NCBI GenBank assembly: GCA_964481275.1
Contig: CAYZTD010000006.1
Location: 27,643 to 91,642, forward strand
Length of the DNA stretch: 64,000 bases
Direction of reading: 5' to 3'
Source: an uncultured Thermoplasmatales archaeon
GTDB taxonomy: Archaea > Thermoplasmatota > E2 > DHVEG-1
The translations under genes and the position numbers were made by a program. The notes beneath the pieces are model-generated. The model saw only the letters and a list, made by a program, of their open reading frames with translations, was not told the origin of the DNA and did no database searches. How positions within the stretch are numbered: position 1 is the stretch's first letter; each line of letters opens with the position of its first letter. Below are positions 368 through 27,781 of the stretch, in pieces.

Positions 368-532
368 ATTTTCCTACCTCCCAAAAAAATGAACAAGATT
401 AGTAATATAATATTATATTATAAATTTTTTCTATTTATTTTATTTTGAAACATTTGTTATATTTTTTCTACACATCGCTCTTAATTTTTTACAAAATTAT
501 ATACAATTTGATTAAATAGATATTTTAGTATT

Positions 533-1237: not shown

Positions 1238-1338
1238 AATCTGATATATTTTCCATAATTTAATACATTTTTTGTATGCACAATAATTTAAACAAAAAAA
1301 TAGAAAAAAGAAATAATTTTATAACAGATTTATAAAAT

Positions 1339-1704
1339 CTATTCTTGATTTAGATATACGAATTTTCCTATAATGAATCCAGTTGCGCTTTTTTCTATAT
1401 CATCTTGTTCTTCACAAGATACTTTAACTGTAACGGTACAAAAACAAAGGTATGGAGAATGACGGATAGTTACGTTAAGCCCATATTGATAGATTGTTCT
1501 ACTATCCTTAATTGGTTCACTAAGTAATTTATCACCATTATTTGAATTTTTCATATCAATTTCATAGTCTATCTTAGTACCTTCAGCATTTTTATCAAAT
1601 TTTACACAGAAATATTTAAACATATATTTAGTTCCAAGACTCCCGCAAATATCTATATCCTCTTCTGTAATTTTTGCTGAGGCAGTACTTATACCCATAA
1701 GCAA
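1339..1704 (-). CDS. small secreted/hypothetical protein
   Basis: 121-aa ORF whose track start is TTG. In-frame upstream residues IICIFIIGIFLL look like the true signal peptide, but no ATG precedes them, so the start is uncertain. Confidence 0.45.
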   Translation of the reverse strand: MLMGISTASAKITEEDIDICGSLGTKYMFKYFCVKFDKNAEGTKIDYEIDMKNSNNGDKLLSEPIKDSRTIYQYGLNVTIRHSPYLCFCTVTVKVSCEEQDDIEKSATGFIIGKFVYLNQE

Positions 1705-1900
1705 AAATATGCCTATTATAAAGATGCATATTATTTCTCTGTTCGTCTTACATCACTATTTTATTATTCTATGGAAATAATATATAAAGTTTATAGAACA
1801 ATAATCCTAACCCCCAAAGAAAATAGTTTTTTTAAATAATCAAATCATCAATAGTTTTAAAAAGATGAAGATAAATTGTTTTTTGGAGATTTAATTTAAA

Positions 1901-2914
1901 ATGAAAAAGAAAGCCATGCTTTTTGAAAAAAAATCTGATAAAAAAATTCATTGTATGCTTTGTGCTCATAATTGTAAGATTCCAGAGGGGAAATTTGGTT
2001 TTTGTAATGTTAGAGAAAATATCGAAGGTGAACTTTATTCTCATGTTTATGGCAAATTAATTGCAGAGCATGTAGATCCTATTGAAAAAAAACCATTATA
2101 TCATTTTTTACCTGGTTCAAGGGCATATTCTATTGCAACTCCTGGTTGTAATCTCCGTTGTAGTTTTTGTCAAAATTGGCAGATATCTCAGGTCACTAAA
2201 AATAAAAGAAAAGATTTTAATTCAAGATATATAGAGCCAGAAAAAGTTGTAGAAAAAGCTTTGAGATATAACTGTAAAAGTATTTCTTATACGTATACTG
2301 AGCCTACTATCTTTTTTGAGTATGCATATGATGTTGCAAAAATTGCAAAAGAGAAAGGTTTGAAAAATACCTTTGTAACAAATGGCTATATGACCGATAA
2401 AGCTCTTGAAAAGATTTCTCCTTATTTAGATGCTGCAAATTTAGATATTAAAAGTTTTAGAGATGATTTTTATAAAAAGATTTGTAAGGCAAGACTTCAA
2501 CCTGTTCTTGATTCTATTAAAAAGATGAAAGAACTTGGCATTTGGATTGAAGTAACAACTCTTGTTGTTCCTGAGCAAAATGATTCAAATGAGGAATTAA
2601 ATGATATAGCTGATTTTATTTCTTCTGTTGGAACTGAGATTCCTTGGCATATAAGTCGTTTTCATCCTGATTATAATTATAATGATTCTTATCCAACACC
2701 TATCAAGACCGTGCAGAAAGCCTATGATATCGGAAAAAAACATGGTCTTAAATATGTTTATCTTGGAAATATTTTAGATGAAAAAGATACTGTTTGTAGT
2801 AATTGTGGTAATGTTTTGATTAAAAGAGATTATATGAAAGGCACTATAACTAATATCGACAATGAAGGGAAATGTAGTAAATGTGGTACAGAAGTCGAAG
2901 GTGTATGGGAATAA
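1901..2914 (+). CDS. amrS: AmmeMemoRadiSam-system radical SAM enzyme (PflA-like activase fold)
   Basis: N-terminal HCMLCAHNCKIPEGKFGFCNVR cluster, CNLRCSFCQNW (CX3CX2C), and C-terminal CSNCG...CSKCG. The overall pattern is typical of this family. Confidence 0.85.
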   Translation: MKKKAMLFEKKSDKKIHCMLCAHNCKIPEGKFGFCNVRENIEGELYSHVYGKLIAEHVDPIEKKPLYHFLPGSRAYSIATPGCNLRCSFCQNWQISQVTKNKRKDFNSRYIEPEKVVEKALRYNCKSISYTYTEPTIFFEYAYDVAKIAKEKGLKNTFVTNGYMTDKALEKISPYLDAANLDIKSFRDDFYKKICKARLQPVLDSIKKMKELGIWIEVTTLVVPEQNDSNEELNDIADFISSVGTEIPWHISRFHPDYNYNDSYPTPIKTVQKAYDIGKKHGLKYVYLGNILDEKDTVCSNCGNVLIKRDYMKGTITNIDNEGKCSKCGTEVEGVWE

Positions 2915-2922
2915 AAAAAAAT

Positions 2923-3684
2923 TTATACGGGTCTTAAAGTTCCAGCAAATACCTGCCATGCCAGAGCTGATTTTGCAACTAGACTTAGGATGATATATAC
3001 TCTTTCACCATGCAAGTAGTATCTCCATCTTCCAATTTTTTTGTATTGCAAAAACATATTTATTGCAAAACAGTTGAAAAATATTGCAATTGTTACAAAG
3101 ATTGCTATTACAAAATCTGGTACTGATTCAGCAGTAATTAATGGTATAAATATTACAATCCATGGTATTATTCCAGCGATACATCCTATAATATATGATA
3201 TCCAGTTTGTTTCTTCTGTTGTTTGGTTGTGTATTTCCATCATTAGACCCATAAGGTTCATTACTGCGGTTAAAACAAATAGTGATATGAGTAGACCTAT
3301 GTCATATATTGTTACAAGCATTGCAATTATTACTATCATAACTGAAGCACTTATTGAGTATTCATACCATCTGTATGGATTCATTCCTCTCTTTAGATAT
3401 TTTACATATCTTTTGTAAAGATATGTGCTTATTAGAAGATGTGCTGTAGCTGAAATAAATAAGAACAATGCTACCAAGGGACCTATTTCTATGTTAAATA
3501 AGGTTTCAGTTGCTGGAGATATAGTTGCAGTGTTTACATTATATGCTGGATATGAATAGGTAACTGGCAAGGAAAAATCATTACTTAAATGTAGCATTAG
3601 TAAAGCCTGTGCTGAATGTATCACAAACATTACTAAGTTGAAGTATCTTAATCGTTTAAATATTCCTTCTTCTGTATCTGTCAT
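2923..3684 (-). CDS. heliorhodopsin (7-TM retinal protein)
   Basis: GERVYIILSLVAKSALAWQVFAGTL (Schiff-base Lys), NPYRWYEYSISASVMIVIIA (counter-ion Glu), GCIAGIIPW, and His in VIHSAQ and ATAHLL. These match my recollection of heliorhodopsin 48C12 and TaHeR. Confidence 0.87.
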   Translation of the reverse strand: MTDTEEGIFKRLRYFNLVMFVIHSAQALLMLHLSNDFSLPVTYSYPAYNVNTATISPATETLFNIEIGPLVALFLFISATAHLLISTYLYKRYVKYLKRGMNPYRWYEYSISASVMIVIIAMLVTIYDIGLLISLFVLTAVMNLMGLMMEIHNQTTEETNWISYIIGCIAGIIPWIVIFIPLITAESVPDFVIAIFVTIAIFFNCFAINMFLQYKKIGRWRYYLHGERVYIILSLVAKSALAWQVFAGTLRPV

Positions 3685-4628: not shown

Positions 4629-4927
4629 GCTGGGTGTAGGCCGTAAGCCTCCTTCTGTTGAATGACGGTATTCTACTATGCGTCTACCTTGCAGGCAGTC
4701 TGGACAACTGATCCTGCTTTTTGGACTTGCTCCAGGAATAGATTGACACGTTTCATCAAATCCTATAAAGACCTCAACACCAAGTGTATCATCGCATTTT
4801 TTATAGACTGTGTCGTTTCTGCGCCTCTATAGAGACTCTCGCCTCTACTACTTGCGTAGTAACCTGGTCCAGAGCGAGGGAGGACTTTCCTCAGCACGAA
4901 GCCGTGAACCGTCCACCTACGCCCAGC
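4629..4927 (-). ncRNA. rnpB: RNase P RNA (archaeal type)
   Basis: GC-rich ORF-free block. The minus strand reads 5' GCTGGGCGTAGG...GAGGAAAGTCC (CR-I, complement of 4882-4892)...ACAGAAGGAGGCTTAC (CR-V)...CCTACACCCAGC 3'. The terminal 12 nt pair to form P1. Length is about 299 nt and the ends are accurate to a few nt. Confidence 0.87.
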
Positions 4928-5078: not shown

Positions 5079-6206
5079 ATGACAAAACCGCCCCAAAAAT
5101 TTCCTTCAAATAGACCATTTTTTAAAAAAATAGCATACAGCACATGTTGGGAAGATTTTGAAACCATAAACAAAGCCCTAAAAATAAACAAAAACGATAA
5201 ACTAATATCAATAAGCTCAGCAGGATGCAACGTTCTAAATGCACTTTTAAAAAACCCAAAAAAAATAATAGCAGTAGACTTCAACCCACATCAAAACCAT
5301 CTACTAGAACTTAAAATAAAAGCGATAAAACATCTAAACCACAAACAATTCTTAGAATTAATTGGAGTAACAGAATCAGATAAAAAAGAAAAAATATACA
5401 AAAAAATAAGAAAAAAACTAACAAAAAATACAAGAAACTTTTGGGATAAAAATATAAAACTAATAAAAAAAGGAATAACCTACAATGGAAGACAAGAAAA
5501 ATATATTAGACTGATAGGAAGGATAATAAGAAGTTTAAAAGGAAACGAATCATGTGAAAAATTCTTAAAAATGAAAGACCGGGAAAAACAAAAAGAATAT
5601 TTTGATAAAAACATTAAAGGAGTGATCTGGGATGCATTTTTTAAAATACTATACAGCAAACCAGTTATGCTTATAGTAAAAGATCGATTAGTTTTCAACC
5701 AGACAGATGAAAACTCATATCACATAAAATTTAGAAAAAGAGCAGAACATGCAATAAAAGACATACCAGTATACAAAAATCCCTTTGCATCATTTGCACT
5801 TAGAGGAAAATATCTAAACGAAGAATATTATCCAGAATATCTAAAAAAGGAAAACTTTGAAAAACTAAAGAAAAATGTAGATAAAATAGAACTAAAAAAC
5901 TCGACAGTAAAAGGCTTATTAGAAAAATTACCTAAAAACTCATATTCAAAAATAAATCTATCAAATTCATTAGACTGGATAACACCAGAAGAATTTATAG
6001 ATACACTAAAAGAAATCACAAGAGTTCTAAAAAACAATGGTAGATTCTGCTACCTTAACACACTAATCACAAGAAATATACCAAAAAATACCAAAAACAT
6101 AAAATCACATAAGAAAAAAGCAAATGAACTACTAAAAAAAGATAGAGCGTTTCTATATGGAAATTTTGAAATAGGAACCATTAAAAAAGGGAGGAAAGAA
6201 AACTAA
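5079..6206 (+). CDS. DUF3419 / BtaA-like SAM-dependent 3-amino-3-carboxypropyl transferase
   Basis: IAYSTCWEDFETINKAL, ISISSAGCNVLNALL and AVDFNPHQNHLLELK match the conserved N-terminal block of the BtaA/DUF3419 family. Start moved from GTG 5070 to ATG 5079, downstream of GTGAT. Confidence 0.75.
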   Translation: MTKPPQKFPSNRPFFKKIAYSTCWEDFETINKALKINKNDKLISISSAGCNVLNALLKNPKKIIAVDFNPHQNHLLELKIKAIKHLNHKQFLELIGVTESDKKEKIYKKIRKKLTKNTRNFWDKNIKLIKKGITYNGRQEKYIRLIGRIIRSLKGNESCEKFLKMKDREKQKEYFDKNIKGVIWDAFFKILYSKPVMLIVKDRLVFNQTDENSYHIKFRKRAEHAIKDIPVYKNPFASFALRGKYLNEEYYPEYLKKENFEKLKKNVDKIELKNSTVKGLLEKLPKNSYSKINLSNSLDWITPEEFIDTLKEITRVLKNNGRFCYLNTLITRNIPKNTKNIKSHKKKANELLKKDRAFLYGNFEIGTIKKGRKEN

Positions 6207-7114
6207 TGTCAAAAAGAATATGCATTATAGTAAATCCTTATTCACAAGGTGGAAAAACAAAAGAAAACTATCCTTCCTACATAAACAACCTAAAAAATAA
6301 CGGATTGATTTTTGATACATACCGTACTAAATCAAAAAGACATTCCACAGAAATTGTAAAAAAATATTTTGATGATTATGATACGTTTATCGCTATAGGT
6401 GGCGATGGATTACTACATGAAATGGCACAGGTTTTAGTAAACCATAAAGAAAAAAAACTAGGAATAGTGCCCAGTGGAAATGGAAATATGTTAGCATCAC
6501 ACCACTGGATATATAATATTGATGATGCAATAGATGCTATAAAAAAAAATAAAACAACTGAAATAGATCTAGTAAAAATAACTTTTAATACAGATAACAG
6601 TAAAAGAACAGTATACTCACATTGTATATTTGGAATAGGCTACATATCAGATGTAGTAAGACTTGCAGTAAATACATTTAGAATATTTGGACCAAAACTC
6701 TGCTATCCACTATCAGGTACACTAGGTGCTATGTATATAAATAGAAACAAAACAAAAATCACAATAGATAACAAAAAAGAAAAAATAGACAAATTAAATA
6801 CAATTATTTTTCTAAACCATGGAAGGATAGGATCCTTTAAAATGGTTGAAAACTCATCAGATAGAGATGGTAGACTAGATTATGTAATATACAAAAACAT
6901 GGGAAGAACAGAAGCGTTACTATGTGTCATGGAAGCAGCATTAAAAACAAAAATATTTAACAAAAATAAAACAGTAGGTCAAACCAAAAAAATAAAAATT
7001 GATTTACCTACAAAAAAAGAACTCATGATAGATGGGGAGATGTATGGCTACACAGATTTGATAGAAGCAAAAGTCATACATAAATCACTAAATGTTTTAT
7101 CAAATAAAAAATAA
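6206..7114 (+). CDS. diacylglycerol/lipid kinase family protein (YegS/LCB5 type)
   Basis: IIVNPYSQGGKT, IAIGGDGLLHE and GIVPSGNGNMLA are DAGK catalytic-domain motifs. The start overlaps the upstream stop (TAATG 6204-6208). Confidence 0.8.
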   Translation: MSKRICIIVNPYSQGGKTKENYPSYINNLKNNGLIFDTYRTKSKRHSTEIVKKYFDDYDTFIAIGGDGLLHEMAQVLVNHKEKKLGIVPSGNGNMLASHHWIYNIDDAIDAIKKNKTTEIDLVKITFNTDNSKRTVYSHCIFGIGYISDVVRLAVNTFRIFGPKLCYPLSGTLGAMYINRNKTKITIDNKKEKIDKLNTIIFLNHGRIGSFKMVENSSDRDGRLDYVIYKNMGRTEALLCVMEAALKTKIFNKNKTVGQTKKIKIDLPTKKELMIDGEMYGYTDLIEAKVIHKSLNVLSNKK

Positions 7115-7136
7115 AAAAAGAAAAAGGTAAAAATAT

Positions 7137-8024
7137 ATGGAAAATAACTTTTTAAGATATATAAAAAAAAGGTTTCAACCAATATTTTTTATACCAATAA
7201 CTCTAATTTTTTATCTAAGCTTTCATCTATTCTCAGATATAAATAAGACAGAGATAACAATCTCAATAGAAACACTATTTGGATTTCTAATAGTATTTCT
7301 AATATTTTTCCACATAAGACTTTTTGATGATATTAAAGATTATAAAAAAACAGATCCTTACAAAAAAATCAGCCTAAAAAAATACCTGATAACTGCAATA
7401 TTTTTAGAAATAGTTCTAAGTATATTTCTAGGACTAAGTGTTTTAATATTCTACATAGTTCTACTATTATTTTCAATAGGAATCTTTTATGATTTTTTTA
7501 TAAAAAAGATACTTACAAGAAATATTTTGATAAATAATTTTACACATCAAATTCTAATAGTATTAATAGGAATTTTTATTTTTGTAATAAATAACAAAAA
7601 TCTTTTTAAAATAAACTACAACTATCTGATATTTACATTAAATATGTATTTAATATTTGCATTTTTTGAATTTACAAGAAAAATCAAAAACAAAAAAGAT
7701 AAAGACTACAAAAAATCATATAACTATATATTTGGAAAAAATAAGTTTTCATTAATACTTATAACATTAACTTTTTTTACCTGTTTTCTAACAATATTTT
7801 CTTTTCTAAAAACAATATATATAACTAACCTTCTAGTAATTGAGATTATTATAGCAACAATTGCAATAATCTCAATAATATACTATCTTAAAAAAACTAT
7901 ACAAGAAAAAACATTGAAGAAGATATGTTTTCTATATTTACTCTTAACACTTTTAATCATAATTTTTACAAATATAATTTTAAAAAACATAATCTTTAAA
8001 ACAGGTTTATTGGTGGCAATATAA
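7137..8024 (+). CDS. polytopic membrane protein, UbiA-prenyltransferase-like
   Basis: About 9 hydrophobic segments. Asp-rich FDDIKDYKKTD follows TM2 and RKIKNKKDKDYKKSYNYIFGKN lies mid-protein, resembling the two UbiA Asp motifs. The family call is tentative. Confidence 0.55.
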   Translation: MENNFLRYIKKRFQPIFFIPITLIFYLSFHLFSDINKTEITISIETLFGFLIVFLIFFHIRLFDDIKDYKKTDPYKKISLKKYLITAIFLEIVLSIFLGLSVLIFYIVLLLFSIGIFYDFFIKKILTRNILINNFTHQILIVLIGIFIFVINNKNLFKINYNYLIFTLNMYLIFAFFEFTRKIKNKKDKDYKKSYNYIFGKNKFSLILITLTFFTCFLTIFSFLKTIYITNLLVIEIIIATIAIISIIYYLKKTIQEKTLKKICFLYLLLTLLIIIFTNIILKNIIFKTGLLVAI

Positions 8025-10708
8025 TGAATGAAAAAAATATCGGTGGAAAAGCATTAAATCTAAATATTCTAACAGAAAACAAAATACCAGTACCAAAATA
8101 TTTTGTAATAAGTACAAACGTATACAAACGATTTCTAAAAGAAAACAAAATCGAAAAAGAAATCAAAGAAATAATAAAAAACATTGATTTCAAAAACAAA
8201 AACAATGTGAGATATAACAGTCAAAAAATAAAGAATCTATTTTTAAAAAATAAAATACCTTATAGGGACAAAGAAAAAATATTAACAATTTTTTCAAAAA
8301 TAAAAAAACAAACAAAAAATGAATATTACGCAGTAAGATCATCAGCTATAGGAGAAGACAGTAGCAAACAATCATTTGCAGGACAGATGGATAGCTTTTT
8401 ATTTATATCAAAAGAAGAAGACATACTTAGATTTATAAAAAAATGCTGGGCATCAGCATACTCCAAAAGAGCACTAACATACAGAAAAATATCAAAAATA
8501 GATCTATCAGATATCTATATTGCAGTAATTATACAAGAAATGATATTTGGAGAGAAATCGGGAGTTGTATTTACCGCAAACCCTTTAAACAACAACCATG
8601 AAGAACTATTGATAAACTCAACATATGGAATAGGAGAAGGAATTGTATTAGGAGAGCTAAACACAGATACCATAGTATATAACAAAAAAATAAACAAATA
8701 TTCTTTCGAAACAGTCGAAAAAAAACATAAAATAGATTTCAACAAAAAAGAAAAGATAGGTACAATAAAAACAGTTATACCAAAAGAAAAACAAAAAAAA
8801 CTAAGTCTCTCAGAAAAAGAAATACAAAAATTAGCAGATTATGCAAAAAAAATAGAGAACATACAAAAAAAACCACAAGACATAGAATGGACCATAAAAA
8901 AAGAAAAAATATACATACTTCAAACAAGACCAATTACAACATTAAAAGAAAAAGATGAAAAAAAGATAATATGGGATAACTCAAACATAATTGAAAGCTT
9001 TCCAGGAATAACAGGACCACTTACTTTTTCATTTGCAAAAACATCCTGGGCAAGTGTCTTCAGACAAACCGCACTTGCAATGGGCGTATCAAAAAAAACA
9101 ATAGAAAAAAATAGTGAACTATTCAACAATATGTTAGGACTGATACATGGACGGGTCTACTACAATCTTATGAACTGGTATAAATTTGTATCATTTTTCC
9201 CTGGATTCAAAAACAATAAAAAATACATGGAACAGATGATGGGGATTAAAAAAAGTCTTAAATTCAAACAAGAAAAAAAAGTATCAACAGAAAAAATCAA
9301 AAATATACCTGGTTTAACAAAACTAATATATGGACTTATAAAAAATCATCTTCTTTTAGATAGGAAAATAAAAAACTTCCACCAAAATTTTGAAAAAAAC
9401 TACAACCAACTCAAAAATTTAAACATCAAAAATAAAAAACCCTGGGAAATAATAGAGATATATAAAACTGCAAAAAATAAACTACTAAATGGTTGGGAAA
9501 TAGAAGGAATAAACGATTATTCAGCTATGTATTTTTATGGGCTTGTAAAAAAACTAACAATAAAATATGATCTAGATAGCACAGGATCACTGCAAAACGA
9601 CCTGTTCTGTGGCGAAAAAGATATGGATAGCACAAAACCCACTAAAGAACTGATAAAACTCTCAGATATAATAAAAAAAGATAAAAAATTAGCAGAATTA
9701 TTTAAACATAAAAACGAAAAAGAAATACTAAACGAAATAAAAAACAACGAAAAGATAAGAGATTTTAAAAATAAATTTGAAAGCTATCTCAAAGAATATG
9801 GTTTTAGATGTATGAGTGAACTAAAACTAGAAGAAAAAAGCCTAATTGATGATCCAAGTTTTCTAATAACAATAATTAAAAATTATCTAAAAAAAGAGAA
9901 TCTAGATTTAGAAAAACTAAACAAAAAAGAATTAGAAAAAAGAAAAAACACAGAAAAAATAATACATAAAAAACTAAGATACAAACCATTCAAAAAACTA
10001 TTTTTCAGATGGGCGCTTAAAAACGCCCGTAAAAGTGTAAAATATCGAGAAAACCTAAGACTATGCAGAACAAAAGTATTTGGAATAGTAAGAGAAGCTT
10101 TTAGAGCAATTGGAAAATATTTTTCAGAACAGAATATAATTGATAAAAAAGAAGATATATTCTATCTTGAAATAGATGAAATATTTAACTTTATAAAAGG
10201 AACAAGTACCACAATAAATCTCAAAAATATTATAAAAACAAGAAGAGAAGAATACAAAAAATTCAAAAAAGAAAAACTTCCAGAAAGATTTACCACCTAT
10301 GGAATAGTAAACAACAAAAATATAGAAAAAATAATCATAGAAAAAGAAAACAAGAATATAACCTCAGACATTTTAAAAGGAATCAGTTGCTGCCCCGGAA
10401 TTGTAAAAAACAAAGCAAGAGTAATTCTTTCACCAGATGACAACGTCGAACTAAATGGAGAAATACTTGTTGCAGATAAAACTGATCCAGGATGGGTGCC
10501 ATTATATCCATCTGTAAGTGGACTTTTAATAGAAAGAGGAAGCGTGCTTTCCCATAGCGCAATTGTAGCAAGAGAACTAGGGCTTCCAACGATAGTAGGA
10601 ATAAGAGGTCTCACCTCAAAAATAAAAGACGGGGAAATCATAAAAATGGATGCAGAGAAAGGGATAGTATATCTAAAACCAGAAAAAAAAGAGGAAAACA
10701 AAAAATGA
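8024..10708 (+). CDS. PEP-utilising phosphotransferase, rifampicin-phosphotransferase-like (ATP-grasp + swivelling His domain, no TIM barrel)
   Basis: N-terminal GGKALNLNIL, AVRSSAIGEDS and QDIEWT...ILQTRPIT are PPDK_N-type ATP-grasp motifs. C-terminal GISCCPG...TDPGWVPLYPSVSGLLIERGSVLSHSAIVARELGLPTIVG is the mobile His domain. TAATG overlap at 8022-8026. Confidence 0.85.
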   Translation: MNEKNIGGKALNLNILTENKIPVPKYFVISTNVYKRFLKENKIEKEIKEIIKNIDFKNKNNVRYNSQKIKNLFLKNKIPYRDKEKILTIFSKIKKQTKNEYYAVRSSAIGEDSSKQSFAGQMDSFLFISKEEDILRFIKKCWASAYSKRALTYRKISKIDLSDIYIAVIIQEMIFGEKSGVVFTANPLNNNHEELLINSTYGIGEGIVLGELNTDTIVYNKKINKYSFETVEKKHKIDFNKKEKIGTIKTVIPKEKQKKLSLSEKEIQKLADYAKKIENIQKKPQDIEWTIKKEKIYILQTRPITTLKEKDEKKIIWDNSNIIESFPGITGPLTFSFAKTSWASVFRQTALAMGVSKKTIEKNSELFNNMLGLIHGRVYYNLMNWYKFVSFFPGFKNNKKYMEQMMGIKKSLKFKQEKKVSTEKIKNIPGLTKLIYGLIKNHLLLDRKIKNFHQNFEKNYNQLKNLNIKNKKPWEIIEIYKTAKNKLLNGWEIEGINDYSAMYFYGLVKKLTIKYDLDSTGSLQNDLFCGEKDMDSTKPTKELIKLSDIIKKDKKLAELFKHKNEKEILNEIKNNEKIRDFKNKFESYLKEYGFRCMSELKLEEKSLIDDPSFLITIIKNYLKKENLDLEKLNKKELEKRKNTEKIIHKKLRYKPFKKLFFRWALKNARKSVKYRENLRLCRTKVFGIVREAFRAIGKYFSEQNIIDKKEDIFYLEIDEIFNFIKGTSTTINLKNIIKTRREEYKKFKKEKLPERFTTYGIVNNKNIEKIIIEKENKNITSDILKGISCCPGIVKNKARVILSPDDNVELNGEILVADKTDPGWVPLYPSVSGLLIERGSVLSHSAIVARELGLPTIVGIRGLTSKIKDGEIIKMDAEKGIVYLKPEKKEENKK

Positions 10709-11802
10709 AAACATGTGAAAACTGTGTATTAAATGAAAAATATCCTCATATAAATTTCAATAAAAAAAATATATGTAATTACTGCACAAACTATGAAAAA
10801 TACAAAGATAAAATTGAAGACAAAAAACATTTAAAAAAACTATTTGAAAAAAGAATAGAAAAAATCAAAGGGCAAAACAAATACGATTGTCTTATAGGAA
10901 TAAGTGGTGGAAAAGATAGTTCATATGTATTACATATTCTAAAAAACAAATACAATCTAAATGTGCTGACATATACTTTTGACAATGGTTTTTTATCAGA
11001 TTATGCAAAAAATAATATTAAAAATCTTGTAGAGAAAATAGGTGTAGATCATTTTTTTCATAAAGCAGAATGGGATTTTCAAAAAAATTTATATAAAAAA
11101 TTTATGGAAACAAAAGGGATCCCATGTAAAGGATGCTCTCTTGGCGCATATGGAACAAGTTTTAAATTTGCATTTGAAAAAAATATACCGTTTGTAATAC
11201 ATGGTAGAACACTTTCACAAATTTTTAGAGAATTTGTACCAGAGAGTACAGATCCAACAATCCCTTTTATAAAAAATAATCTACAAGAATATAACAAAGA
11301 AAAACAGATAGAAACCTTAATCACTGTAGCAGATAGACTTATGAATCTAACCTCAGGAATTGGAAAAAATAATGAAGAACTATTAAACAAACTCTTGAAA
11401 GAATTCTTTCCAGATGTATCAGAATTATTAACTTCAGATATGATACCTGAATTTCTAGGATTTTTCCTATACTATCCTTATAACGAAAAAAATATAAAAA
11501 ATGTTTTAGAAAAAGAATTGAAATGGACAAGACCAAAAAAAGACAAAACTTTTTCACATGCAGATTGTCTGATACATGATGCAGTAGAATATATAAGATA
11601 CAAAAAATTTGGTTACACAATAATTGAACCAGAGATAAGTGTATTGATAAGACAAAACAAAATAACAAAAGAAAAAGCTCTAAAAAGAATAAAAGCAGAA
11701 CAAAAAGATATCTCAGAGCCAAAAGAATCCCTAAAAATACTATGTAAGAAACTTAACCTAGATTATAAAAAATTCAAAAAGAATCTAGAAAAAACAAATT
11801 GA
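10705..11802 (+). CDS. PP-loop ATPase, N-acetyl-sugar amidotransferase family (WbpG/WbuX-like)
   Basis: N-terminal CENC...PHINFNKKNICNYC zinc-ribbon pattern followed by the PP-loop ISGGKDSSY. ATGA overlap with the upstream gene at 10705-10708. Confidence 0.8.
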   Translation: MKTCENCVLNEKYPHINFNKKNICNYCTNYEKYKDKIEDKKHLKKLFEKRIEKIKGQNKYDCLIGISGGKDSSYVLHILKNKYNLNVLTYTFDNGFLSDYAKNNIKNLVEKIGVDHFFHKAEWDFQKNLYKKFMETKGIPCKGCSLGAYGTSFKFAFEKNIPFVIHGRTLSQIFREFVPESTDPTIPFIKNNLQEYNKEKQIETLITVADRLMNLTSGIGKNNEELLNKLLKEFFPDVSELLTSDMIPEFLGFFLYYPYNEKNIKNVLEKELKWTRPKKDKTFSHADCLIHDAVEYIRYKKFGYTIIEPEISVLIRQNKITKEKALKRIKAEQKDISEPKESLKILCKKLNLDYKKFKKNLEKTN

Positions 11803-11807
11803 TTGAT

Positions 11808-13403
11808 ATGGTAAAAAAATTTGATATCTTCACAGAAATCAAAAAAAATTTGAAAGAAACAGAAAAACAAAAAGCATTAATCTACAAACATAAAAATAAA
11901 TACAAATCAATAACCTACAAAGAATTCAACGAAAAAGCAGCAATTCTTGCAGCAAATCTCAAAAAAAAAGGAATAAAACCTGGCGACAGAATAGTAGTAA
12001 TGATACCTATCTCACTTAGTCTATATATCATTATTTTTGCATTGATAAAACTTGGAGCAGTAATTGTTTTTATAGACCCATGGATTGGGATAAAAAAAAT
12101 AAAAGAAAGCTGCAAGATATCCAGACCAAAAGGATTCATAGGAAATATTAAAGCAAATACATTACGCATTTTATCAAAAACATTTAGAAAGATACCTATA
12201 AAAATGACTGTAACAAAAACAAATGCCGAATTTTTAGAAACAATAAATAGGTTAGATTCAAATAAAAAAATCAAAACAAAAAACTATTACAAATCAGACT
12301 CTTTAATGTTTATCAGATTTACAACAGGTAGTACAGGTAAACCAAAAGGGGTTGAAAGAACCTATGGTTTTACTTGTAAAATGATAGAAGCAATAAATGA
12401 TTTTTTTCCTATAAAAAAAGCAGATGTAGATCTAACGACTTTTCCATTAAATCTGTTTTATGATTTAACAATGGGAGCAACAGCGTTGATACCATCTATC
12501 TCCTATGGTAGAATCAAAAAAATCAAGACTGAAGAATGTATAGAACAAATAGTAAAATGCAATGTTACAACTTTGTCAGGTTCACCATTTTTTTTAAAAG
12601 AAATAATAAACAAATGTCAAGATAAAAACATCAAACTAAAAAACCTAAGATTTGTCTTTACTGGTGGAGGACCCACATCAATAAATCTAATTAAACAAAT
12701 GAAAAAAACATTTCCAAAAGCAGAGATAAAAATAGTATACGGATCAACAGAATCATTTCCCATAGCATGGATAGATATAAAAGAAATAATATCAAAACTA
12801 GAAAAACAAACAATGAAAGGAAAGGGAATATGTCTAGGGAAAACACACAAAAATATTAACGTAAAAATAATAAAACCTACAGATCAAAAAATAAAAATCG
12901 AAACAGAAAAAGACTGGGAAAGTATATTACTAAAAAAACATGAAATAGGTGAAATAATAGTTACAGGCCCCCATGTTATAAAAAAATACCATGAAGAAAA
13001 AAACATGTTATTTGAAAAAAACAAAATAATTGACAATAGTAAAAATATCTGGCATAGAACAGGTGATGCAGGATATTTAGATGGAAAAAATAGGATATGG
13101 TTAGTAGGACGAAAAACAAATATTTTTAAAATAAAAAACAAAAAAATGGCCTCACTAATGTTTGAATATGTATTTGACACGATACCAGAAATAGAAAAAA
13201 CAGCTGTTATAAAAAATAATAAACTAATGATTCTAATCCAAGTAAAAAAAGATTCTATGAAAAAAAATATAGAAAAAAGAGTGGAAAAAATCTGTAAAAC
13301 AAATAATTTTCCAATAGAAAAAATATCCTTTATAGATAAAATACCCTTAGATGAAAGACACAACACAAAAGTTGATTATAAAAAACTAAAAAAACAGTTA
13401 TAA
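11808..13403 (+). CDS. AMP-dependent synthetase/ligase (ANL superfamily, acyl-adenylate forming)
   Basis: FTTGSTGKPKGV (A3 motif), YGSTE, and TGDAGYLD...LVGR. The track start 11799 is TTG, so ATG at 11808 is preferred. Confidence 0.85.
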   Translation: MVKKFDIFTEIKKNLKETEKQKALIYKHKNKYKSITYKEFNEKAAILAANLKKKGIKPGDRIVVMIPISLSLYIIIFALIKLGAVIVFIDPWIGIKKIKESCKISRPKGFIGNIKANTLRILSKTFRKIPIKMTVTKTNAEFLETINRLDSNKKIKTKNYYKSDSLMFIRFTTGSTGKPKGVERTYGFTCKMIEAINDFFPIKKADVDLTTFPLNLFYDLTMGATALIPSISYGRIKKIKTEECIEQIVKCNVTTLSGSPFFLKEIINKCQDKNIKLKNLRFVFTGGGPTSINLIKQMKKTFPKAEIKIVYGSTESFPIAWIDIKEIISKLEKQTMKGKGICLGKTHKNINVKIIKPTDQKIKIETEKDWESILLKKHEIGEIIVTGPHVIKKYHEEKNMLFEKNKIIDNSKNIWHRTGDAGYLDGKNRIWLVGRKTNIFKIKNKKMASLMFEYVFDTIPEIEKTAVIKNNKLMILIQVKKDSMKKNIEKRVEKICKTNNFPIEKISFIDKIPLDERHNTKVDYKKLKKQL

Positions 13404-14339
13404 ATTCTTATAAAATAAAGCATAATTTTTAAAATTTTTATCTTTTTTCTCTCTAAGTTTTTTAACTATATTATCAGTATATGTAAGATGATGTAAAACA
13501 AAATCACAATTATTTTCTATAGCTGTTTTATGTATCATATATCTAAAAGCAGAGCCAATACCTTTATTTTGAAAAGATTTTTTGATACCGATTGTCTTCC
13601 AAACCCAAATATTATCACCATATGGATTTTTAAAGTTAAAAGTAAAACCAACTGGTTCTTTTTTATAAAAACACATATCTACAACAGGGCTCAGTTTAAC
13701 TTTTTTGTTAAAACCTGAGACATATATTTTCTTAAAATCCTTGTAAGAAATAGGGGAGTACAAGGGGTTTTCTGTAAATGAATTCATAGATATTTTGTAT
13801 ATATCGTGTAAGGCAAAATAAATCTTAAAACCTTTATATATTTTAAAAGAGTAGCCCTTTTTAAGAATTTTTTTATATTTTTCTCTGTAATATTTAGCTT
13901 TTGAATCATAAGATTGAACTAAAGTACTACAATAATTTTTATATTCTTTATAATCTAATTTTTTTGCAATCTCTGGAAAATATTTTGGATTAGAAGGTTC
14001 ATTATAAATCTTAGTTTCTTCAAATCCTTTTATCATCCATCGATAAGAAAACCATGTACTATAATTAATAGGACCAACTAATTTTTTACCTGAAAAACTT
14101 TTTGCAGAATTCTCCATCTTTGTAAAAAGATTTCTTGCAACTACTAAATCATTTGGAAAATTAATAAAGCCAAATAACACAATGTTTTCAGAGATCTCAG
14201 GATTTTTCATTAAAACACAATAAGAGTTTTTTGTATTTTCAATATATTTCCATCTATTAAAATCTAAATTTTTTAATATAGAAGTTTCATTACCCCAATT
14301 TTTCTTTAATTTGTCTTTAATTTGTTTTATATCTTTCAT
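13398..14339 (-). CDS. GNAT-like acyltransferase domain protein
   Basis: The C-terminal part contains WKTIGIKKSFQNKGIGSAFRY, a Q/RxxGxG/A acetyl-CoA-binding-type motif. The N-terminal 200 aa are not recognisable. Last gene of a minus-strand string. Confidence 0.5.
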   Translation of the reverse strand: MKDIKQIKDKLKKNWGNETSILKNLDFNRWKYIENTKNSYCVLMKNPEISENIVLFGFINFPNDLVVARNLFTKMENSAKSFSGKKLVGPINYSTWFSYRWMIKGFEETKIYNEPSNPKYFPEIAKKLDYKEYKNYCSTLVQSYDSKAKYYREKYKKILKKGYSFKIYKGFKIYFALHDIYKISMNSFTENPLYSPISYKDFKKIYVSGFNKKVKLSPVVDMCFYKKEPVGFTFNFKNPYGDNIWVWKTIGIKKSFQNKGIGSAFRYMIHKTAIENNCDFVLHHLTYTDNIVKKLREKKDKNFKNYALFYKNL

Positions 14340-14359
14340 ATGTGTTTCCTAAAAAAAAC

Positions 14360-15964
14360 TTAATAATAAAAAAATTCCCCTTGAGATGTTTCGGTATCAA
14401 CTAATTTTCCATCTAAATATATTCTGGTATCAAAAATACAAGTTATACCTCTTGGTACAGACATAGTTAACATTACTTTTTCTTTCATAAAAGCTTCAAC
14501 ATCATCTATATCCTTTATCATTACATCTATCTCAAGATCATCTTTTGTATAAAAAATACCTTTTAATTTCAGATTTTCAGCTTTTTTCCTTCCAAGATTT
14601 TCAATGTAAACAAGCACTTTTAGTAATACTTTACCAGAAGAATCTGTATAAATAACAGATGAATTATCTCTCCAATGGTGATAGATTAAAGGTCTTGAGT
14701 TAATAGGATATACATCAATACTACTAGGATTTCTATAATCTTTATGGACAAAACCTAGTTTAATATCTGGAGATGTATCAAGAAAATAATAGTTATCAAC
14801 ATAATAATCATATTCGTGTAGTATAATATCACCTAAATTAACACCTGTTGCCATATGATCAGGTATACGTATCAAAGAAACATTATAACCCATCTCATCT
14901 AGAATACTTGCAGTAAGAATTGCTTTATCCTCGCAATCACCACCGCCCTGACCATCATTGTTAAATAAAGTATCAGCAGGATATTGGGGATCTTCAATTT
15001 CATTACCTTCTTCATCTAGATCAGGCCGGTATTTTAGATTTTGAACAAAACTTGCGATACTATTTATCTTTTCTGAATCTAATAGATCATCAAAAAATTC
15101 ACTAAACCTCACAGTAGAAATAATTTCATCTTTAACAAAATCAACAAAATCATCATCATATCTGTCAAAAATAAAGGCTGCATAATCCTCCAAATATAGA
15201 TCCTTGTTATCATAATAGTTATACATAAAATCAACAACAGGGAGAGTTAATGTTTCATCCAGGCCTTTATTATATCTTGTTGTTTCTAATATTTTCACAT
15301 TATTAAAACTCAAATTTTGTTTAACCAATAAGACATTGTTTACATCTTTTATCGTTAGTTCAAATAGATCATTATCCTTAATATCCTCAACATATACAAA
15401 AAAATTAGTAGTTTGATTTGAGTAAGGCAAAATAGAAACAGGTAAAATATAGCTTTCATATAGATTATCATTATAGTTTATTTTAGACAAAAAAGGATAA
15501 ACAGGAGTATCACCATTATTATAGAAATCAAGTTCAATACCCACCAATGATTTAGTACTTGATTTTTCCCATATTTTTAACTCATATGAATTTATATCCA
15601 AATTAGGTCCACCAAAAGAAAAAGTTTTTTCTTTGATTAGATTATTATCTCTATCAAAAGCTTTCAAGATTATGTCTTCTGAATAAATTGTTTCTCGATA
15701 TGAACCAAATTTTAATGTTGCATTATCATCTCCATAAAAATATTCCTCATCAATTTTTTCTGATTTTGAATTATATGTTTCAAGAGTGATCATGCTATTG
15801 TATCGAAACTTAATATATAACGAAGGAAAACCTTCGTCATCGATTACAGTCCATGAGCTAATCGAATAGTTTACTCCAGATATAACATCTTCAAAAATAC
15901 AACCTGAAAAACAACTAAAAACAAAGATTGAAATTAAAAAACTTGTAATTATTTTTTTGTTCAT
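14360..15964 (-). CDS. transglutaminase-like (Cys-His-Asp) domain lipoprotein
   Basis: Signal peptide with lipobox FSGC. Core is GGGDCEDKAILTASIL ... IPDHMATGV ... FLDTS, matching the C/H/D spacing of transglutaminase-like cysteine proteases. Confidence 0.7.
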   Translation of the reverse strand: MNKKIITSFLISIFVFSCFSGCIFEDVISGVNYSISSWTVIDDEGFPSLYIKFRYNSMITLETYNSKSEKIDEEYFYGDDNATLKFGSYRETIYSEDIILKAFDRDNNLIKEKTFSFGGPNLDINSYELKIWEKSSTKSLVGIELDFYNNGDTPVYPFLSKINYNDNLYESYILPVSILPYSNQTTNFFVYVEDIKDNDLFELTIKDVNNVLLVKQNLSFNNVKILETTRYNKGLDETLTLPVVDFMYNYYDNKDLYLEDYAAFIFDRYDDDFVDFVKDEIISTVRFSEFFDDLLDSEKINSIASFVQNLKYRPDLDEEGNEIEDPQYPADTLFNNDGQGGGDCEDKAILTASILDEMGYNVSLIRIPDHMATGVNLGDIILHEYDYYVDNYYFLDTSPDIKLGFVHKDYRNPSSIDVYPINSRPLIYHHWRDNSSVIYTDSSGKVLLKVLVYIENLGRKKAENLKLKGIFYTKDDLEIDVMIKDIDDVEAFMKEKVMLTMSVPRGITCIFDTRIYLDGKLVDTETSQGEFFYY

Positions 15965-15969
15965 CAGAA

Positions 15970-18906: not shown

Positions 18907-18978
18907 TAGATTAAAACAATAAAAAAAGTGTTATATTTAATTTTTAATTATAGTTGAAAAAAATAAGGTGAAGATTAT

Positions 18979-27693: not shown

Positions 27694-27781
27694 CGCTGAG
27701 GGGGAGATTTGAACTCCCGCTCCCCAGATGGAGAACCGGCTCTCAAGGCCGGCGCGGTAGGCCGGGCTTTGCTACCTCAGC
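27694..27781 (-). tRNA. tRNA-Ser (anticodon UGA)
   Basis: Hand-folded 88 nt. 7-bp acceptor GCTGAGG/CCTCAGC, anticodon stem CCGGC/GCCGG with loop CUUGAGA, long variable arm CTCC..GGAG, T-arm GGGAG-TTCAAAT-CTCCC, discriminator G. The D-stem has one mismatch. Confidence 0.88.

Follow-up and report, generated by a model that had tools for sequence, protein, structure and literature searches.

The window, the whole 64,000-nt stretch of DNA from an uncultured Thermoplasmatales archaeon analysed here, contains a compact cluster of seven genes (Table 1). Read base by base, g1/g2 and g3/g4 are joined at TAATG junctions (6204-6208 and 8022-8026) and g4/g5 at an ATGA junction (10705-10708); g2 and g3 are separated by 22 nt (7115-7136) and g5 and g6 by 5 nt (11803-11807). 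g1 could also start at a GTG (5070) and g6 at a TTG (11799), the latter giving a protein of 534 aa. A sequence-only reading of this DNA had described a six-gene operon. The six forward-strand frames and all the junctions it named are present where it placed them, and they bear out a compact, co-oriented unit of g1 to g6. Its extent, however, has to be widened by the convergent gene g7, which is conserved alongside the others as a seventh member. The two convergent genes overlap by 6 nt, with the stop codon of g6 at 13401-13403 and that of g7 at 13398-13400, and a g7 homologue is convergent at the same position in L003, L004, L005 and L105; further homologues occur in L015, L016, L097 and L098. 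The only membrane protein among the seven is g3.

Table 1. Genes of the cluster and their positions in the window
Gene	Assignment	Position	Strand	Length
g1	DUF3419/BtaA-family class-I SAM-dependent transferase	5079..6206	+	375 aa
g2	soluble DAGK_cat/YegS-type lipid kinase	6206..7114	+	302 aa
g3	divergent nine-helix UbiA-superfamily membrane transferase	7137..8024	+	295 aa
g4	Rph/PigC-family ATP-dependent phosphohistidine-swivel phosphotransferase	8024..10708	+	894 aa
g5	WbuX/WbpG-type PP-loop amidotransferase, N-terminal Cys-rich ribbon	10705..11802	+	365 aa
g6	ANL-superfamily adenylating ligase	11808..13403	+	531 aa
g7	tandem-GNAT acyl-CoA N-acyltransferase	13398..14339	-	313 aa

Profile searches upheld the six earlier family assignments at family level. 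g1 matches Pfam PF11899 (DUF3419) with 262 bits (1e-77) over profile positions 4-382 of 385, and its BLASTP alignment with BtaA of Rhizobium leguminosarum runs over the full length (27% identity, 7e-41). The gene for that reference protein adjoins a BtaB-type methyltransferase gene, and the identity of g1 to BtaA proteins from btaA-btaB contexts is 25-29%. Membership in the DUF3419 family therefore stands, while the low identity, the absence of BtaB from the cluster and a neighbour-joining tree in which cluster-type DUF3419 proteins were not separated from BtaA leave BtaA chemistry as a proposal, namely that g1 is a 3-amino-3-carboxypropyl (acp) transferase. It could be a methyltransferase instead.

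The kinase g2 matches PF00781 (DAGK_cat; 2.5e-22) and YegS_C and carries a GGDG motif; its score against TIGR00147, 100 bits, lies below the cut-off of 118.65. Sphingosine and ceramide kinases, whose substrates are 2-(acyl)amino-1-ols, belong to the DAGK_cat kinases. Eight loci have only a DAGK-type gene, ten have only a gene for a dolichol-kinase-like membrane kinase, TM457, and none has both. This mutual exclusion points to non-homologous replacement of one lipid-alcohol kinase step. The CTP motif of dolichol kinase is also carried by phytol kinase VTE5. In the form D-x2-A-x3-G-x3-G-x(8-11)-K-[ST]-x-E-G, quoted for dolichol kinase in PMC13586052, it is present in 27 of 32 TM457 homologues. 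The C-terminus of TM457 shows weak GtrA-like similarity. Since the DAGK-type gene is interchangeable with TM457, a prenol or lipid alcohol is favoured as substrate over diacylglycerol.

On its own, g3 has no match in Pfam, UbiA included. The profile of its family matches the UbiA-family enzyme DGGGP synthase (PDB 6m31) at 2.5e-7. Its AF2 model (pLDDT 68) has nine long helices in a UbiA fold, with 6m31 as the best fold match (TM 0.61/0.64), followed by other UbiA folds; the membrane PRTase 8j8k is also among the matches. The first Asp motif is retained (D64-D65-x-x-D68). In place of the second Asp-rich motif the whole family has E-x-x-R-K...E..SY..G (E178-x-x-R-K in g3), and the RPLxxG loop is lost in g3 and the archaeal window-type proteins. 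With both elements missing, g3 may work without a prenyl diphosphate. The family, ~600 representatives at 50% identity, forms a clade of its own and includes ANL::UbiA-like fusion proteins in L016, P0168 and P0267; P0252 is probably another, judging from its length and match position.

Three domains were found in g4: PPDK_N (2.9e-92), the PEP-utilizers mobile (His) domain and Rph_4th. The enzyme had been described as PEP-driven, but the domain search detected no PEP-utilizers_C (PEP/pyruvate TIM-barrel) domain, and an ATP-grasp with a phosphohistidine swivel domain marks it as ATP-driven instead. It aligns with Listeria Rph (5fbs; 2.6e-86), including the catalytic His in 'VLSHSAIVARELGLP', except in the substrate-domain region (~309-540), which is unalignable. 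Scores fall far under the NCBIfam cut-offs for Rph (375 versus 999) and PigC (403 versus 1300); the nearest NCBIfam model is PRK06241.2-2, an uncharacterised 'PEP synthase' subfamily (856, cut-off 883). In 52 same-strand pairs the UbiA-like gene is followed immediately by the Rph-like gene, with gaps mostly of -20 to +20 nt. We know of no member of the PEP-synthase/Rph family that phosphorylates a phosphate monoester.

g5 contains the PP-loop SGGKDS, exceeds the cut-off of TIGR03573 (WbuX; 217.4 versus 203.2 bits) and matches a Legionella N-acetyl sugar amidotransferase (PDB 8wex) at 7.4e-13. g6 matches PF00501 (AMP-binding; 3.2e-47), carries the motifs TGSTGKPKG, YGSTE and TGD and a C-terminal Lys, and scores 420 bits against PRK09274 (cut-off 478) and 261 bits against the OleC type; in the PDB it comes closest to the LgrA adenylation domain (4e-31). 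The best Foldseek match of the g7 AF2 model (pLDDT 73.6) is the glucosamine N-acetyltransferase 5kf1 (8e-10), with further matches to MshD, FemX and the MprF C-terminal domain. Its Q-x-x-G-x-G motif reads 'QNKGIGS', and its bacterial homologues match Pfam Acetyltransf_1. A GNAT gene is present in seven loci, a formyltransferase gene in ten and both in none, which argues that an amine is N-capped. Amino sugars, rather than an acp amine, are suggested by the relatives of WbuX, by the top fold match of g7 and by the likeness of the formyltransferases to ArnA.

The gene set is repeated on dozens of independent contigs. The seven-gene order recurs in independent archaeal contigs (L003, L004, L005/L006, L024 and L105; 37-83% identity) from three or more archaeal lineages, and the core, ANL followed by the UbiA-like and Rph-like genes together with DUF3419, occurs in Planctomycetes, Omnitrophica, Bdellovibrionales and Brevibacillus laterosporus and on a Roseinatronobacter plasmid. 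Besides archaea, the carriers are many uncultured and two cultured bacteria, and the core is mostly bacterial. This distribution, and the exchange of the DAGK-type kinase for a dolichol-kinase-like one, which points away from diacylglycerol, give no support to the relevance for mixed membranes once suggested for the locus.

In 50 loci of at least 8 kb, the UbiA-like gene is accompanied by an Rph-like gene in 47, ANL in 41 and DUF3419 in 38. When at least 6 kb was available on both sides (21 loci), the Rph-like gene was always present, ANL and DUF3419 were found together in 16 and both were absent from 4; DUF3419 accompanies ANL in 16 of the 17 complete-flank loci having ANL. No other gene accompanies the UbiA-like gene as constantly as the Rph-like one, even where the rest of the cluster is absent. 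Some genomes have the UbiA-Rph pair alone (L009, L012), and a kinase-UbiA-Rph trio occurs without ANL, DUF3419 or reductase in L012, L069, L071 and L075. In archaeal loci the carboxylate-directed partners are ANL and WbuX, the latter restricted to these loci and one Omnitrophica locus; in archaeal L100 a PS-decarboxylase-like gene replaces both. All eight bacterial DAGK-type loci have ANL and a reductase (SDR in L016, L046, L072, L077, L093, L095 and L099, HMGR-like in L079), and many TM457-type loci have ANL with an SDR or an HMG-CoA-reductase-like enzyme, the latter sometimes with a second ANL. No reductase was found in the window cluster or any archaeal relative, so that bacterial and archaeal products may differ. 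Looking for the families in other genomes, as the sequence-only reading proposed, thus gave strong co-conservation and no refutation. Its view that no characterised pathway has this enzyme set also agrees with our results: none was found in the literature on the cluster or its families or as a curated family, and RefSeq protein names in a cultured carrier are generic.

Our favoured explanation, held with some reserve, is that this conserved, uncharacterised cluster may make or tailor a membrane-bound isoprenoid-type lipid by means of two modules, with substrates, step order and product that we infer from the families. The lipid module would consist of the lipid-alcohol kinase g2, the transferase g3 and the phosphotransferase g4, which is translationally coupled to g3; the closest solved relative of g3 is an archaeal ether-lipid enzyme, DGGGP synthase. 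The most economical chemistry would be two successive phosphorylations, either from lipid alcohol to monophosphate to diphosphate or on a hydroxyl of the product, which would feed or come after alkyl/prenyl transfer. In the head-group module (g1, g6, g7 and g5), g1 would install the acp (homoserine-type) group, and g7 would N-acetylate its amine, a role that the formyltransferase would take in other lineages. The amidotransferase g5 would convert the acetamide to an acetamidine or amidate the acid, and g6 would adenylate the carboxylate for further ligation. Functional linkage of the genes is indicated by the ANL/UbiA-like fusions (in at least three, probably four, lineages), the kinase substitution and the GNAT/formyltransferase substitution. 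The UbiA fold and first Asp motif, the g4 catalytic His, the g5 PP-loop and the tandem-GNAT fold of g7 are intact. Since some genomes have just the UbiA-Rph pair, the modules could act on different molecules. Overall, the operon, which this archaeon shares with many uncultured and two cultured bacteria, probably serves to make and modify an unusual membrane lipid.

An unlikely alternative would take an acid through thioester, alcohol and monophosphate to an alkyl diphosphate, using the ligase, a reductase, the kinase and the Rph-like enzyme. The UbiA-like protein would move this unusual donor, possibly acp-derived, to an acceptor, and the kinases would act on a head-group-derived alcohol. The reductases of the bacterial DAGK-type loci and the HMGR-like genes of many TM457-type loci fit such a route, as do the ANL::UbiA fusions and the sphingosine and ceramide kinases within DAGK_cat. 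However, the window cluster and all its archaeal relatives lack a reductase, TM457 resembles long-polyprenol kinases, and the trio described above does without ANL, DUF3419 and reductase.

Modification of a polyprenyl-phosphate-linked amino sugar or cell-surface glycan, which we regard as decidedly unlikely, would leave DUF3419 and ANL without a role. The kinase would make polyprenyl phosphate, the UbiA-like protein would attach a phospho-sugar, acting like DPPR synthase, a membrane phosphoribosyltransferase, and an amino sugar bearing an N-acetyl, N-formyl or acetamidino group would result from the action of WbuX and of GNAT or formyltransferase. g5 lies above the N-acetyl sugar amidotransferase cut-off and matches 8wex, but WbuX is missing from nearly all bacterial versions and its HisH/HisF-like partners are not in the cluster. 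Likewise, GlmU-like and phosphohexomutase-like genes lie at 17872-20358, but no GlmU/GlmM neighbours were seen in those flanks of other archaeal loci that were read. The fold matches of GNAT (glucosamine N-acetyltransferase, then MshD), the resemblance of the formyltransferases to ArnA and dTDP-amino-sugar formyltransferases, the 8j8k match of g3 and the GtrA-like C-terminus of TM457 also suit a glycan, whereas no glycosyltransferase, sugar aminotransferase or nucleotide-sugar enzyme is among the annotated genes in or beside the cluster (the ~50-locus comparison covered cluster-family queries).

It is very improbable that the product is a diffusible prenylated secondary metabolite, an antibiotic or signal, with the Rph-like enzyme phosphorylating it or a precursor for self-protection or export. 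Pairs of ANL and membrane UbiA proteins are known in prenylated aromatic-acid pathways, e.g. xiamenmycin, and provide a precedent. Members of the Rph family phosphorylate rifamycins and so inactivate them, and the PigC/RedH relatives (NCBIfam hits) have a part in making pigments. The B. laterosporus cluster adjoins a P450, an ABC exporter and FecCD-type permeases, and a MarR regulator is found in L014. However, the constancy of the Rph-like gene (47/50 loci, even without the rest of the cluster) and its tight coupling, seen even in two-gene loci, are the behaviour of a core catalytic subunit and not of a resistance gene, which makes the self-protection suggested by the sequence-only reading unlikely. 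PKS/NRPS, aromatic-acid and terpene-synthase genes are absent, the carriers include many anaerobic uncultured lineages whose genomes are small, and two unrelated lipid kinases swap for each other. Chance juxtaposition, for which one could cite gene-dense archaeal genomes and the frequency of short overlaps between unrelated genes, has a negligible probability and is effectively refuted by recurrence at dozens of loci in archaea and at least six bacterial phyla, conserved order, gene fusions and analogous-enzyme substitution.

The lipid module that we favour would follow the kinase/second phosphotransferase/UbiA logic of prenol salvage in plants and cyanobacteria (phytol kinase VTE5, phytyl-phosphate kinase VTE6 and UbiA-type VTE2; PMC9782597 and PMC9385802) and of the geranylgeraniol and geranylgeranyl-phosphate kinase activities of Sulfolobus. 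The bacterial alternative kinase TM457 shares the dolichol-kinase CTP motif. In contrast, the cluster would use an Rph-type dikinase as its second kinase in place of a VTE6/COG1836 protein, and the first kinase of the window is a soluble DAGK-type enzyme whose role is read from sequence. DGGGP synthase, the best profile and fold match of g3, and other UbiA prenyltransferases have the nine-helix fold and first Asp-rich motif in common with g3, which differs in its replaced second motif and lost RPLxxG loop. Rph and the condensing enzymes PigC/RedH/TamQ have the same three-part architecture as g4 (ATP-grasp, substrate domain, C-terminal swivel) and the conserved catalytic His; unlike these, the g4-type gene invariably has one for a UbiA-like membrane protein as its partner.

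The head-group module can be compared with the BtaA/BtaB pathway to the betaine lipid DGTS (Rhodobacter, rhizobia; BTA1 in algae), since g1 is a full-length member of the BtaA family and its proposed chemistry would likewise be SAM-dependent aminocarboxypropyl transfer to a lipid hydroxyl. The cluster partners are wholly different (ANL, GNAT or formyltransferase, PP-loop amidotransferase, UbiA-like and Rph-like), and the head group, trimethylated there, would be N-acylated or amidinated here. With WbuX/WbpG/PseA, which serve acetamidino sugars of LPS O-antigens, g5 shares the TIGR03573 assignment and PP-loop, and an N-acetyltransferase is encoded beside it, as acetamide-to-acetamidine chemistry requires; however, the cluster lacks a sugar-nucleotide/glycosyltransferase context and HisH/HisF-like ammonia-delivering partners, and g5 is only distantly similar to the solved Legionella enzyme. 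In diphthamide biosynthesis, acp transfer by Dph2 is followed by PP-loop amidation by Dph6. The families differ (radical-SAM Dph2 versus DUF3419) and the substrate there is a protein, so that the likeness would be a chemical analogy only: transfer of a SAM-derived 3-amino-3-carboxypropyl group, then amidation of the amino-acid moiety so formed by an ATP-dependent PP-loop enzyme.

The six plus-strand open reading frames that the sequence-only reading had proposed as one operon are present where it had placed them. Read base by base, their junctions are TAATG overlaps at 6204-6208 and 8022-8026, an ATGA overlap at 10705-10708 and gaps of 22 nt (7115-7136) and 5 nt (11803-11807), as it had stated. 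The six genes do not, however, stand as a complete set, since a convergent seventh gene, g7, is conserved alongside them in archaea. The stop codon of g7 (13398-13400) and that of g6 (13401-13403) fall in a 6-nt overlap. The window is archaeal, with about 28% G+C, and g3 is the only membrane protein among the seven.

Positions of the cluster genes (g1 to g7) and neighboring features in the window
Feature	Positions	Strand	Description
RNase P RNA	4632-4924	minus	Archaeal type; RF00373, 167.6 bits, full length
g1	5079-6206	plus	DUF3419 (BtaA family); Pfam 262 bits, near full length
g2	6206-7114	plus	DAGK_cat + YegS_C lipid kinase; GGDG motif
g3	7137-8024	plus	Divergent UbiA-superfamily membrane protein
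g4	8024-10708	plus	Rph-like phosphotransferase
g5	10705-11802	plus	WbuX-type PP-loop amidotransferase; TIGR03573, SGGKDS
g6	11808-13403	plus	ANL adenylating ligase; nearest models PRK09274, OleC
g7	13398-14339	minus	Tandem-GNAT acyltransferase, 313 aa; fold match + QNKGIGS
Secreted-protein gene	14360-15964	minus	534 aa; N-terminal signal or TM segment; weak DUF7490 match
Aminotransferase gene	15970-17202	minus	Class I/II; like MocR/PdxR effector domain without HTH
Sugar-nucleotide gene pair	17872-20358	plus	GlmU-like (NTP_transferase + hexapeptide) and phosphohexomutase-like (MTKLFGTNGIRG)
tRNA gene	27694-27781	minus	88 nt
S10-like ORF	27859-28170
EF-1alpha-like ORF	28233-29519
tRNA gene	29659-29731	minus
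tRNA gene	42798-42869	minus

The gene order DUF3419, DAGK-type kinase, UbiA-like, Rph-like, WbuX, ANL and convergent GNAT recurs in archaea. All seven genes were found in this order on independent archaeal contigs (L003, L004, L005/L006, L024 and L105) at 37-83% identity and part of the order on a Thermoplasmata MAG (L008), while the exact window proteins are also present on two other assemblies. The secreted-protein and aminotransferase genes beyond g7, which have the same orientation as g7, are shared with the closest relative, L004, alone and are not part of the unit. An archaeal variant on contigs L100 (4811-12074; GCA_964518165.1) and L104 has DUF3419, DAGK-type and Rph-like genes, no ANL or WbuX gene, and no UbiA-like gene between the DAGK-type and Rph-like genes. 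In L100 a phosphatidylserine-decarboxylase-like gene on the opposite strand lies between the Rph-like and UbiA-like genes, and a GNAT gene comes after the UbiA-like gene; this is a single case. The L104 contig stops after its Rph-like gene, and the context can be read only in L100.

Several other features lie near these clusters. The G+C-rich RNase P RNA gene is divergent from g1 and about 150 nt upstream of it. The GlmU-like and phosphohexomutase-like genes, 3.5 kb from the cluster, are the sole sugar-nucleotide genes near it and are probably unrelated, because none is found beside the cluster in the flanks read of L003, L005/L006 and L105. Of the window tRNA genes, one is 88 nt long, which hints at an intron or a long variable arm, and the EF-1alpha-like and S10-like ORFs lie between tRNA genes. 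Upstream of the cluster on L004, at a distance of about 5 kb, are two more PPDK_N genes (positions 1-3530), one of them fused to a nucleotidyltransferase domain.

Base composition gave no sign of recent transfer into the archaeon, and we rejected recent horizontal acquisition, because the G+C content at third codon positions is the same in the cluster (0.185) as in the rest of the window (0.169 ± 0.027). Overall DNA G+C is 25.8% in the cluster and 30.8% in the rest of the window despite this, and lysine makes up 16.1% of the cluster proteins (5079-14339) compared with 10.0% elsewhere in the window.

Scans with a profile of the UbiA-like protein recovered 9 relatives from genomes and 168 from metagenomes, and the same combination of families was found to be co-conserved in archaeal contigs and in many bacterial loci. 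Among 50 loci of at least 8 kb, the Rph-like gene is present in 47, the ANL gene in 41 and the DUF3419 gene in 38; for the 21 loci flanked on each side by at least 6 kb the numbers are 21, 17 and 16. Of these 21 loci, 16 have both ANL and DUF3419 and 4 have neither. In 52 pairs the UbiA-like gene is next to an Rph-like gene of the same orientation, mostly at a spacing of -20 to +20 nt. The trio of kinase, UbiA-like and Rph-like genes, or the pair of the latter two, also stands alone in some genomes beside unrelated genes such as transposases and CRISPR genes. ANL and UbiA-like proteins form a single polypeptide in L016 (Bdellovibrionales) and in the database representatives P0168 and P0267; a fourth such fusion, P0252, is probable, judged by its length and the position of the match only.

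Carriers include Planctomycetes, Omnitrophica, Acetothermia, Bdellovibrionales, Desulfobacterales, a cyanobacterium, Clostridia and Bacillota. Two are cultured, namely Brevibacillus laterosporus B9 and Roseinatronobacter sp. S2, where the cluster is on a plasmid and its genes have generic RefSeq names. The B. laterosporus locus (L098; NZ_CP011076.1, ~461-480 kb) belongs to a record that is entered as a 'plasmid' of 1.38 Mb, and PLSDB gives no annotation for this part of it. The cluster itself takes up about 463-475 kb. A cytochrome P450 gene follows the cluster there, and the flanks contain an ETX/MTX2-type toxin gene, two FecCD-type permeases and an ABC exporter. On a 2.9-Mb bacterial contig (L099), the Rph-like gene has a convergent neighbor at 12770-14158 that resembles PLD-type (PLDc_2) phospholipid synthases, an arrangement seen once among the loci compared. 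The sequence-only reading had considered the operon relevant to the question of mixed membranes. Given that the distribution is predominantly bacterial and that the kinase slot is prenol-type in most bacteria, the cluster says nothing clear about fatty-acyl or mixed archaeal membranes.

The data divide the cluster into what appear to be a lipid module and a head-group module. The former would consist of the kinase, the UbiA-like transferase and the Rph-like phosphotransferase. For the kinase, g2 matches the DAGK catalytic (PF00781, 2.5e-22) and YegS C-terminal (PF19279, 7e-6) domains and contains the GGDG motif in 'IGGDGLL'. These features uphold the earlier YegS-type lipid kinase assignment, with a score against TIGR00147 (100 bits) that is under the cut-off of 118.65. 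A DAGK-type kinase is present in 8 of the 21 loci; 10 have TM457, a membrane protein resembling dolichol kinase, in its place, 3 have neither and none has both. TM457 has a conserved core of about 215 aa that is also found as a stand-alone protein. It matched nothing in NCBIfam or Pfam beyond a weak CTP_transf_1 hit, and a profile search against the PDB gave no match. In 27 of 32 homologues of the core we found the pattern D-x2-A-x3-G-x3-G-x(8-11)-K-[ST]-x-E-G, which is the CTP-binding motif of dolichol kinase (PMC13586052). That two unrelated kinases take the same place suggests that the substrate is a lipid or prenol alcohol and not diacylglycerol specifically.

Alone, g3 of the window has no Pfam or NCBIfam match. 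A model (AlphaFold/AF2; pLDDT 68) has nine long helices, and its top Foldseek matches are all UbiA-superfamily structures (6m31, 7bpu, 4od4, 4tq3, 8djk and 8j8k; TM up to 0.64). A profile of 16 family members matches DGGGP synthase (PDB 6m31) at 2.5e-7, and bacterial members exceed the Pfam PF01040 cut-off (38.5 versus 34.2). The UbiA-like call made earlier for this 9-TM protein is thus confirmed by both the fold of the model and the family profile. The first Asp-rich motif, (N/D)DxxDxxxD, is kept, with D64-D65-x-x-D68 invariant; the bacterial and L003-type proteins also have its third Asp, which is one residue off in g3. The second motif, DxxxD, is replaced in all 16 aligned members by E178-x-x-R181-K182 ... 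E..S194-Y195 ... G200, and window-type archaeal members have also lost the RPLxxG loop. At E ≤ 1e-10 the family has 601 representatives (50% identity clusters) among 1.84 billion proteins. A relation to EboC and the Ebo cluster was dropped, its sole match being one of 5e-4 by a single bacterial member.

The third component, g4, contains PPDK_N (PF01326, ATP-grasp), Rph_4th (PF27448) and mobile phosphohistidine (PF00391) domains; the PEP/pyruvate TIM barrel (PEP-utilizers_C, PF02896) was not found. It aligns with Listeria rifampicin phosphotransferase (5fbs) at 2.6e-86, including the catalytic His. The description of this enzyme as PEP-driven is therefore incorrect: with ATP-grasp and swivel domains, an aligned catalytic His and no TIM barrel, g4 is ATP-driven. 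It is also not a true PEP synthase (pyruvate, water dikinase), lacking the barrel and scoring 329 bits against TIGR01418 (cut-off 740). The alignment with 5fbs fails over residues ~309-540, which form the substrate-binding part, and the score against the Rph family NF041857 is 375 bits versus a cut-off of 999. At E ≤ 1e-50 the subfamily comprises at least 1657 database clusters, all generically named, in which the archaeal proteins form a discrete clade (56-81% identity) with the nearest bacteria at 44-46%. No relative of Rph or PEP synthase is known to phosphorylate a phosphate ester.

The head-group module would comprise DUF3419, the ANL ligase and an N-acyl or N-formyl transferase, to which lineages add WbuX, a reductase or a decarboxylase. 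The match of g1 to PF11899 (1e-77) covers profile positions 4-382 of 385, so at the family level the BtaA-like DUF3419 assignment holds. An end-to-end alignment with Rhizobium leguminosarum BtaA gave 27% identity (7e-41), and in a neighbor-joining tree BtaA is nested among cluster-type DUF3419 proteins with no clean separation. The proposed aminocarboxypropyl transfer by g1 has indirect support, because the predicted accessory enzymes act on an amine and a carboxylate, both of which would be brought in by this SAM-dependent transfer. A second biological role for BtaA-family enzymes is possible.

The ANL ligase assignment of g6 is borne out by PF00501 (3.2e-47) and by the core motifs read in the sequence (TGSTGxPKG, YGxTE, TGD and the C-terminal Lys). 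Its score against PRK09274 is 420 bits (cut-off 478) and its best PDB match is an NRPS adenylation domain. An OleC beta-lactone synthetase was rejected (261 bits versus a cut-off of 900; no OleA, OleB or OleD). In one archaeal lineage the ANL protein is short, at 417-433 aa (L003, 14715-15968; L005, 9807-11108; L105, 12835-14118). It is without the C-terminal subdomain of ~100 aa, including the A10 lysine region, that g6 has, and there is no space for this subdomain ahead of the convergent GNAT gene.

No Pfam or NCBIfam family matched g7, and Acetyltransf_1 of Pfam is matched only by its bacterial homologues. Its model (pLDDT 73.6), built with database homologues, has a tandem-GNAT fold whose best Foldseek match is glucosamine N-acetyltransferase 5kf1 (8e-10), with MshD (2c27), 2wpw, FemX and the MprF synthase domain also among the best. 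The acyl-CoA motif Q/R-x-x-G-x-G/A is present as QNKGIGS. No locus has both the tandem GNAT, found in 7 loci, and a formyltransferase similar to Fmt and ArnA, found in 10; either enzyme would serve to N-cap an amine. For g5, a score of 217.4 bits against TIGR03573 (cut-off 203.2) and a PP-loop at residues 67-72 substantiate the WbpG-type amidotransferase assignment; the match to the Legionella enzyme 8wex is 7.4e-13. HisH/HisF-like partners (WbuY/WbuZ) and a polysaccharide context were absent among the nine ORFs in 5079-17202. Archaeal clusters have WbuX and no reductase. A reductase is present in all eight bacterial DAGK-type loci, of the SDR kind (epimerase/NAD_binding_4) in seven and HMG-CoA-reductase-like in one, and many TM457-type loci have an HMG-CoA-reductase-like protein, sometimes with a second ANL.

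We infer every substrate, the sequence in which the steps run and the product. In the window version, g7 would N-acetylate the amine, g5 would turn the acetamide into an acetamidine or carry out an amidation, and g6 would adenylate the carboxylate. Our fullest reading, which we regard as bold and rather improbable as a whole, is an undescribed route that leads to membrane lipids of a new class and is common to many anaerobic bacteria and to archaea related to Thermoplasmata. Such a lipid would be of the isoprenoid or ether type and bear a SAM-derived homoserine-type head group, with the amine acetylated and amidinated and the carboxylate activated, reduced or removed. In this route a membrane lipid would for the first time be the substrate of a phosphohistidine-swivel dikinase, namely the Rph-like enzyme; docked on a UbiA-type transferase, that enzyme might be the long-sought prenyl-phosphate kinase. 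A polyprenyl-phosphate-linked glycan is kept alive as another product because the WbuX family, the best fold match of g7 and the ArnA-like formyltransferases suit an amino sugar equally well; however, no glycosyltransferase or nucleotide-sugar enzyme is present among those genes of the clusters and their flanks that were annotated. Phosphorylation of a product for self-protection had been suggested earlier; self-resistance as the role of the Rph-like enzyme is unlikely, since no other gene accompanies the UbiA-like gene as constantly as the Rph-like gene does. An attractive idea that we dropped is that the HMG-CoA-reductase-like protein supplies mevalonate in bacteria without the MVA pathway.

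We rate the cluster as an orphan lipid or biosynthetic operon in which every enzyme comes from a known superfamily. Its unusual features are the obligate UbiA-like/Rph-like pair, the ANL::UbiA fusions and the replacement of enzymes by analogous ones at two steps. Of all the results, these patterns of substitution tell the most about the cluster. As the sequence-only reading had supposed, no characterised pathway with this enzyme set, and no description of the gene set, was found in the literature on the cluster or its families. Curated libraries give its proteins generic or sub-threshold names only, and the sole mention of DUF3419 found in the literature on biosynthetic gene clusters is as a flanking gene. 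If the membrane-lipid reading is true, it defines a widespread orphan lipid pathway, with a UbiA-like family of about 600 representatives at 50% identity, common to both sides of the archaea-bacteria divide. It would also provide a second biological context for DUF3419/BtaA-family enzymes, a new job for Rph-like enzymes, for which PEP synthase or resistance gene is the routine annotation, and gene candidates for archaeal prenol and prenyl-phosphate kinase activities. With two cultured carriers, the cluster is experimentally tractable now.

Two known systems can be compared with the cluster. BtaA proteins from a btaA-btaB context are only 25-29% identical to g1. The btaA and btaB genes are paired in L101 and L102, whereas the g1 cluster is without btaB, there being no methyltransferase gene, and hence no BtaB-type N-methyltransferase, within 5079-17202. 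For the lipid module, the simplest scheme would be two successive phosphorylations around an alkyl or prenyl transfer. Prenol and prenyl-phosphate kinase activities have been measured in archaea since 1996; in Sulfolobus both geranylgeraniol and geranylgeranyl-phosphate kinase activities were measured, and reviews from 2022 name no genes for them (PMC9385802). The scheme would follow the same logic as phytol salvage, in which VTE5, then VTE6 and then VTE2 act in succession (PMC9782597).
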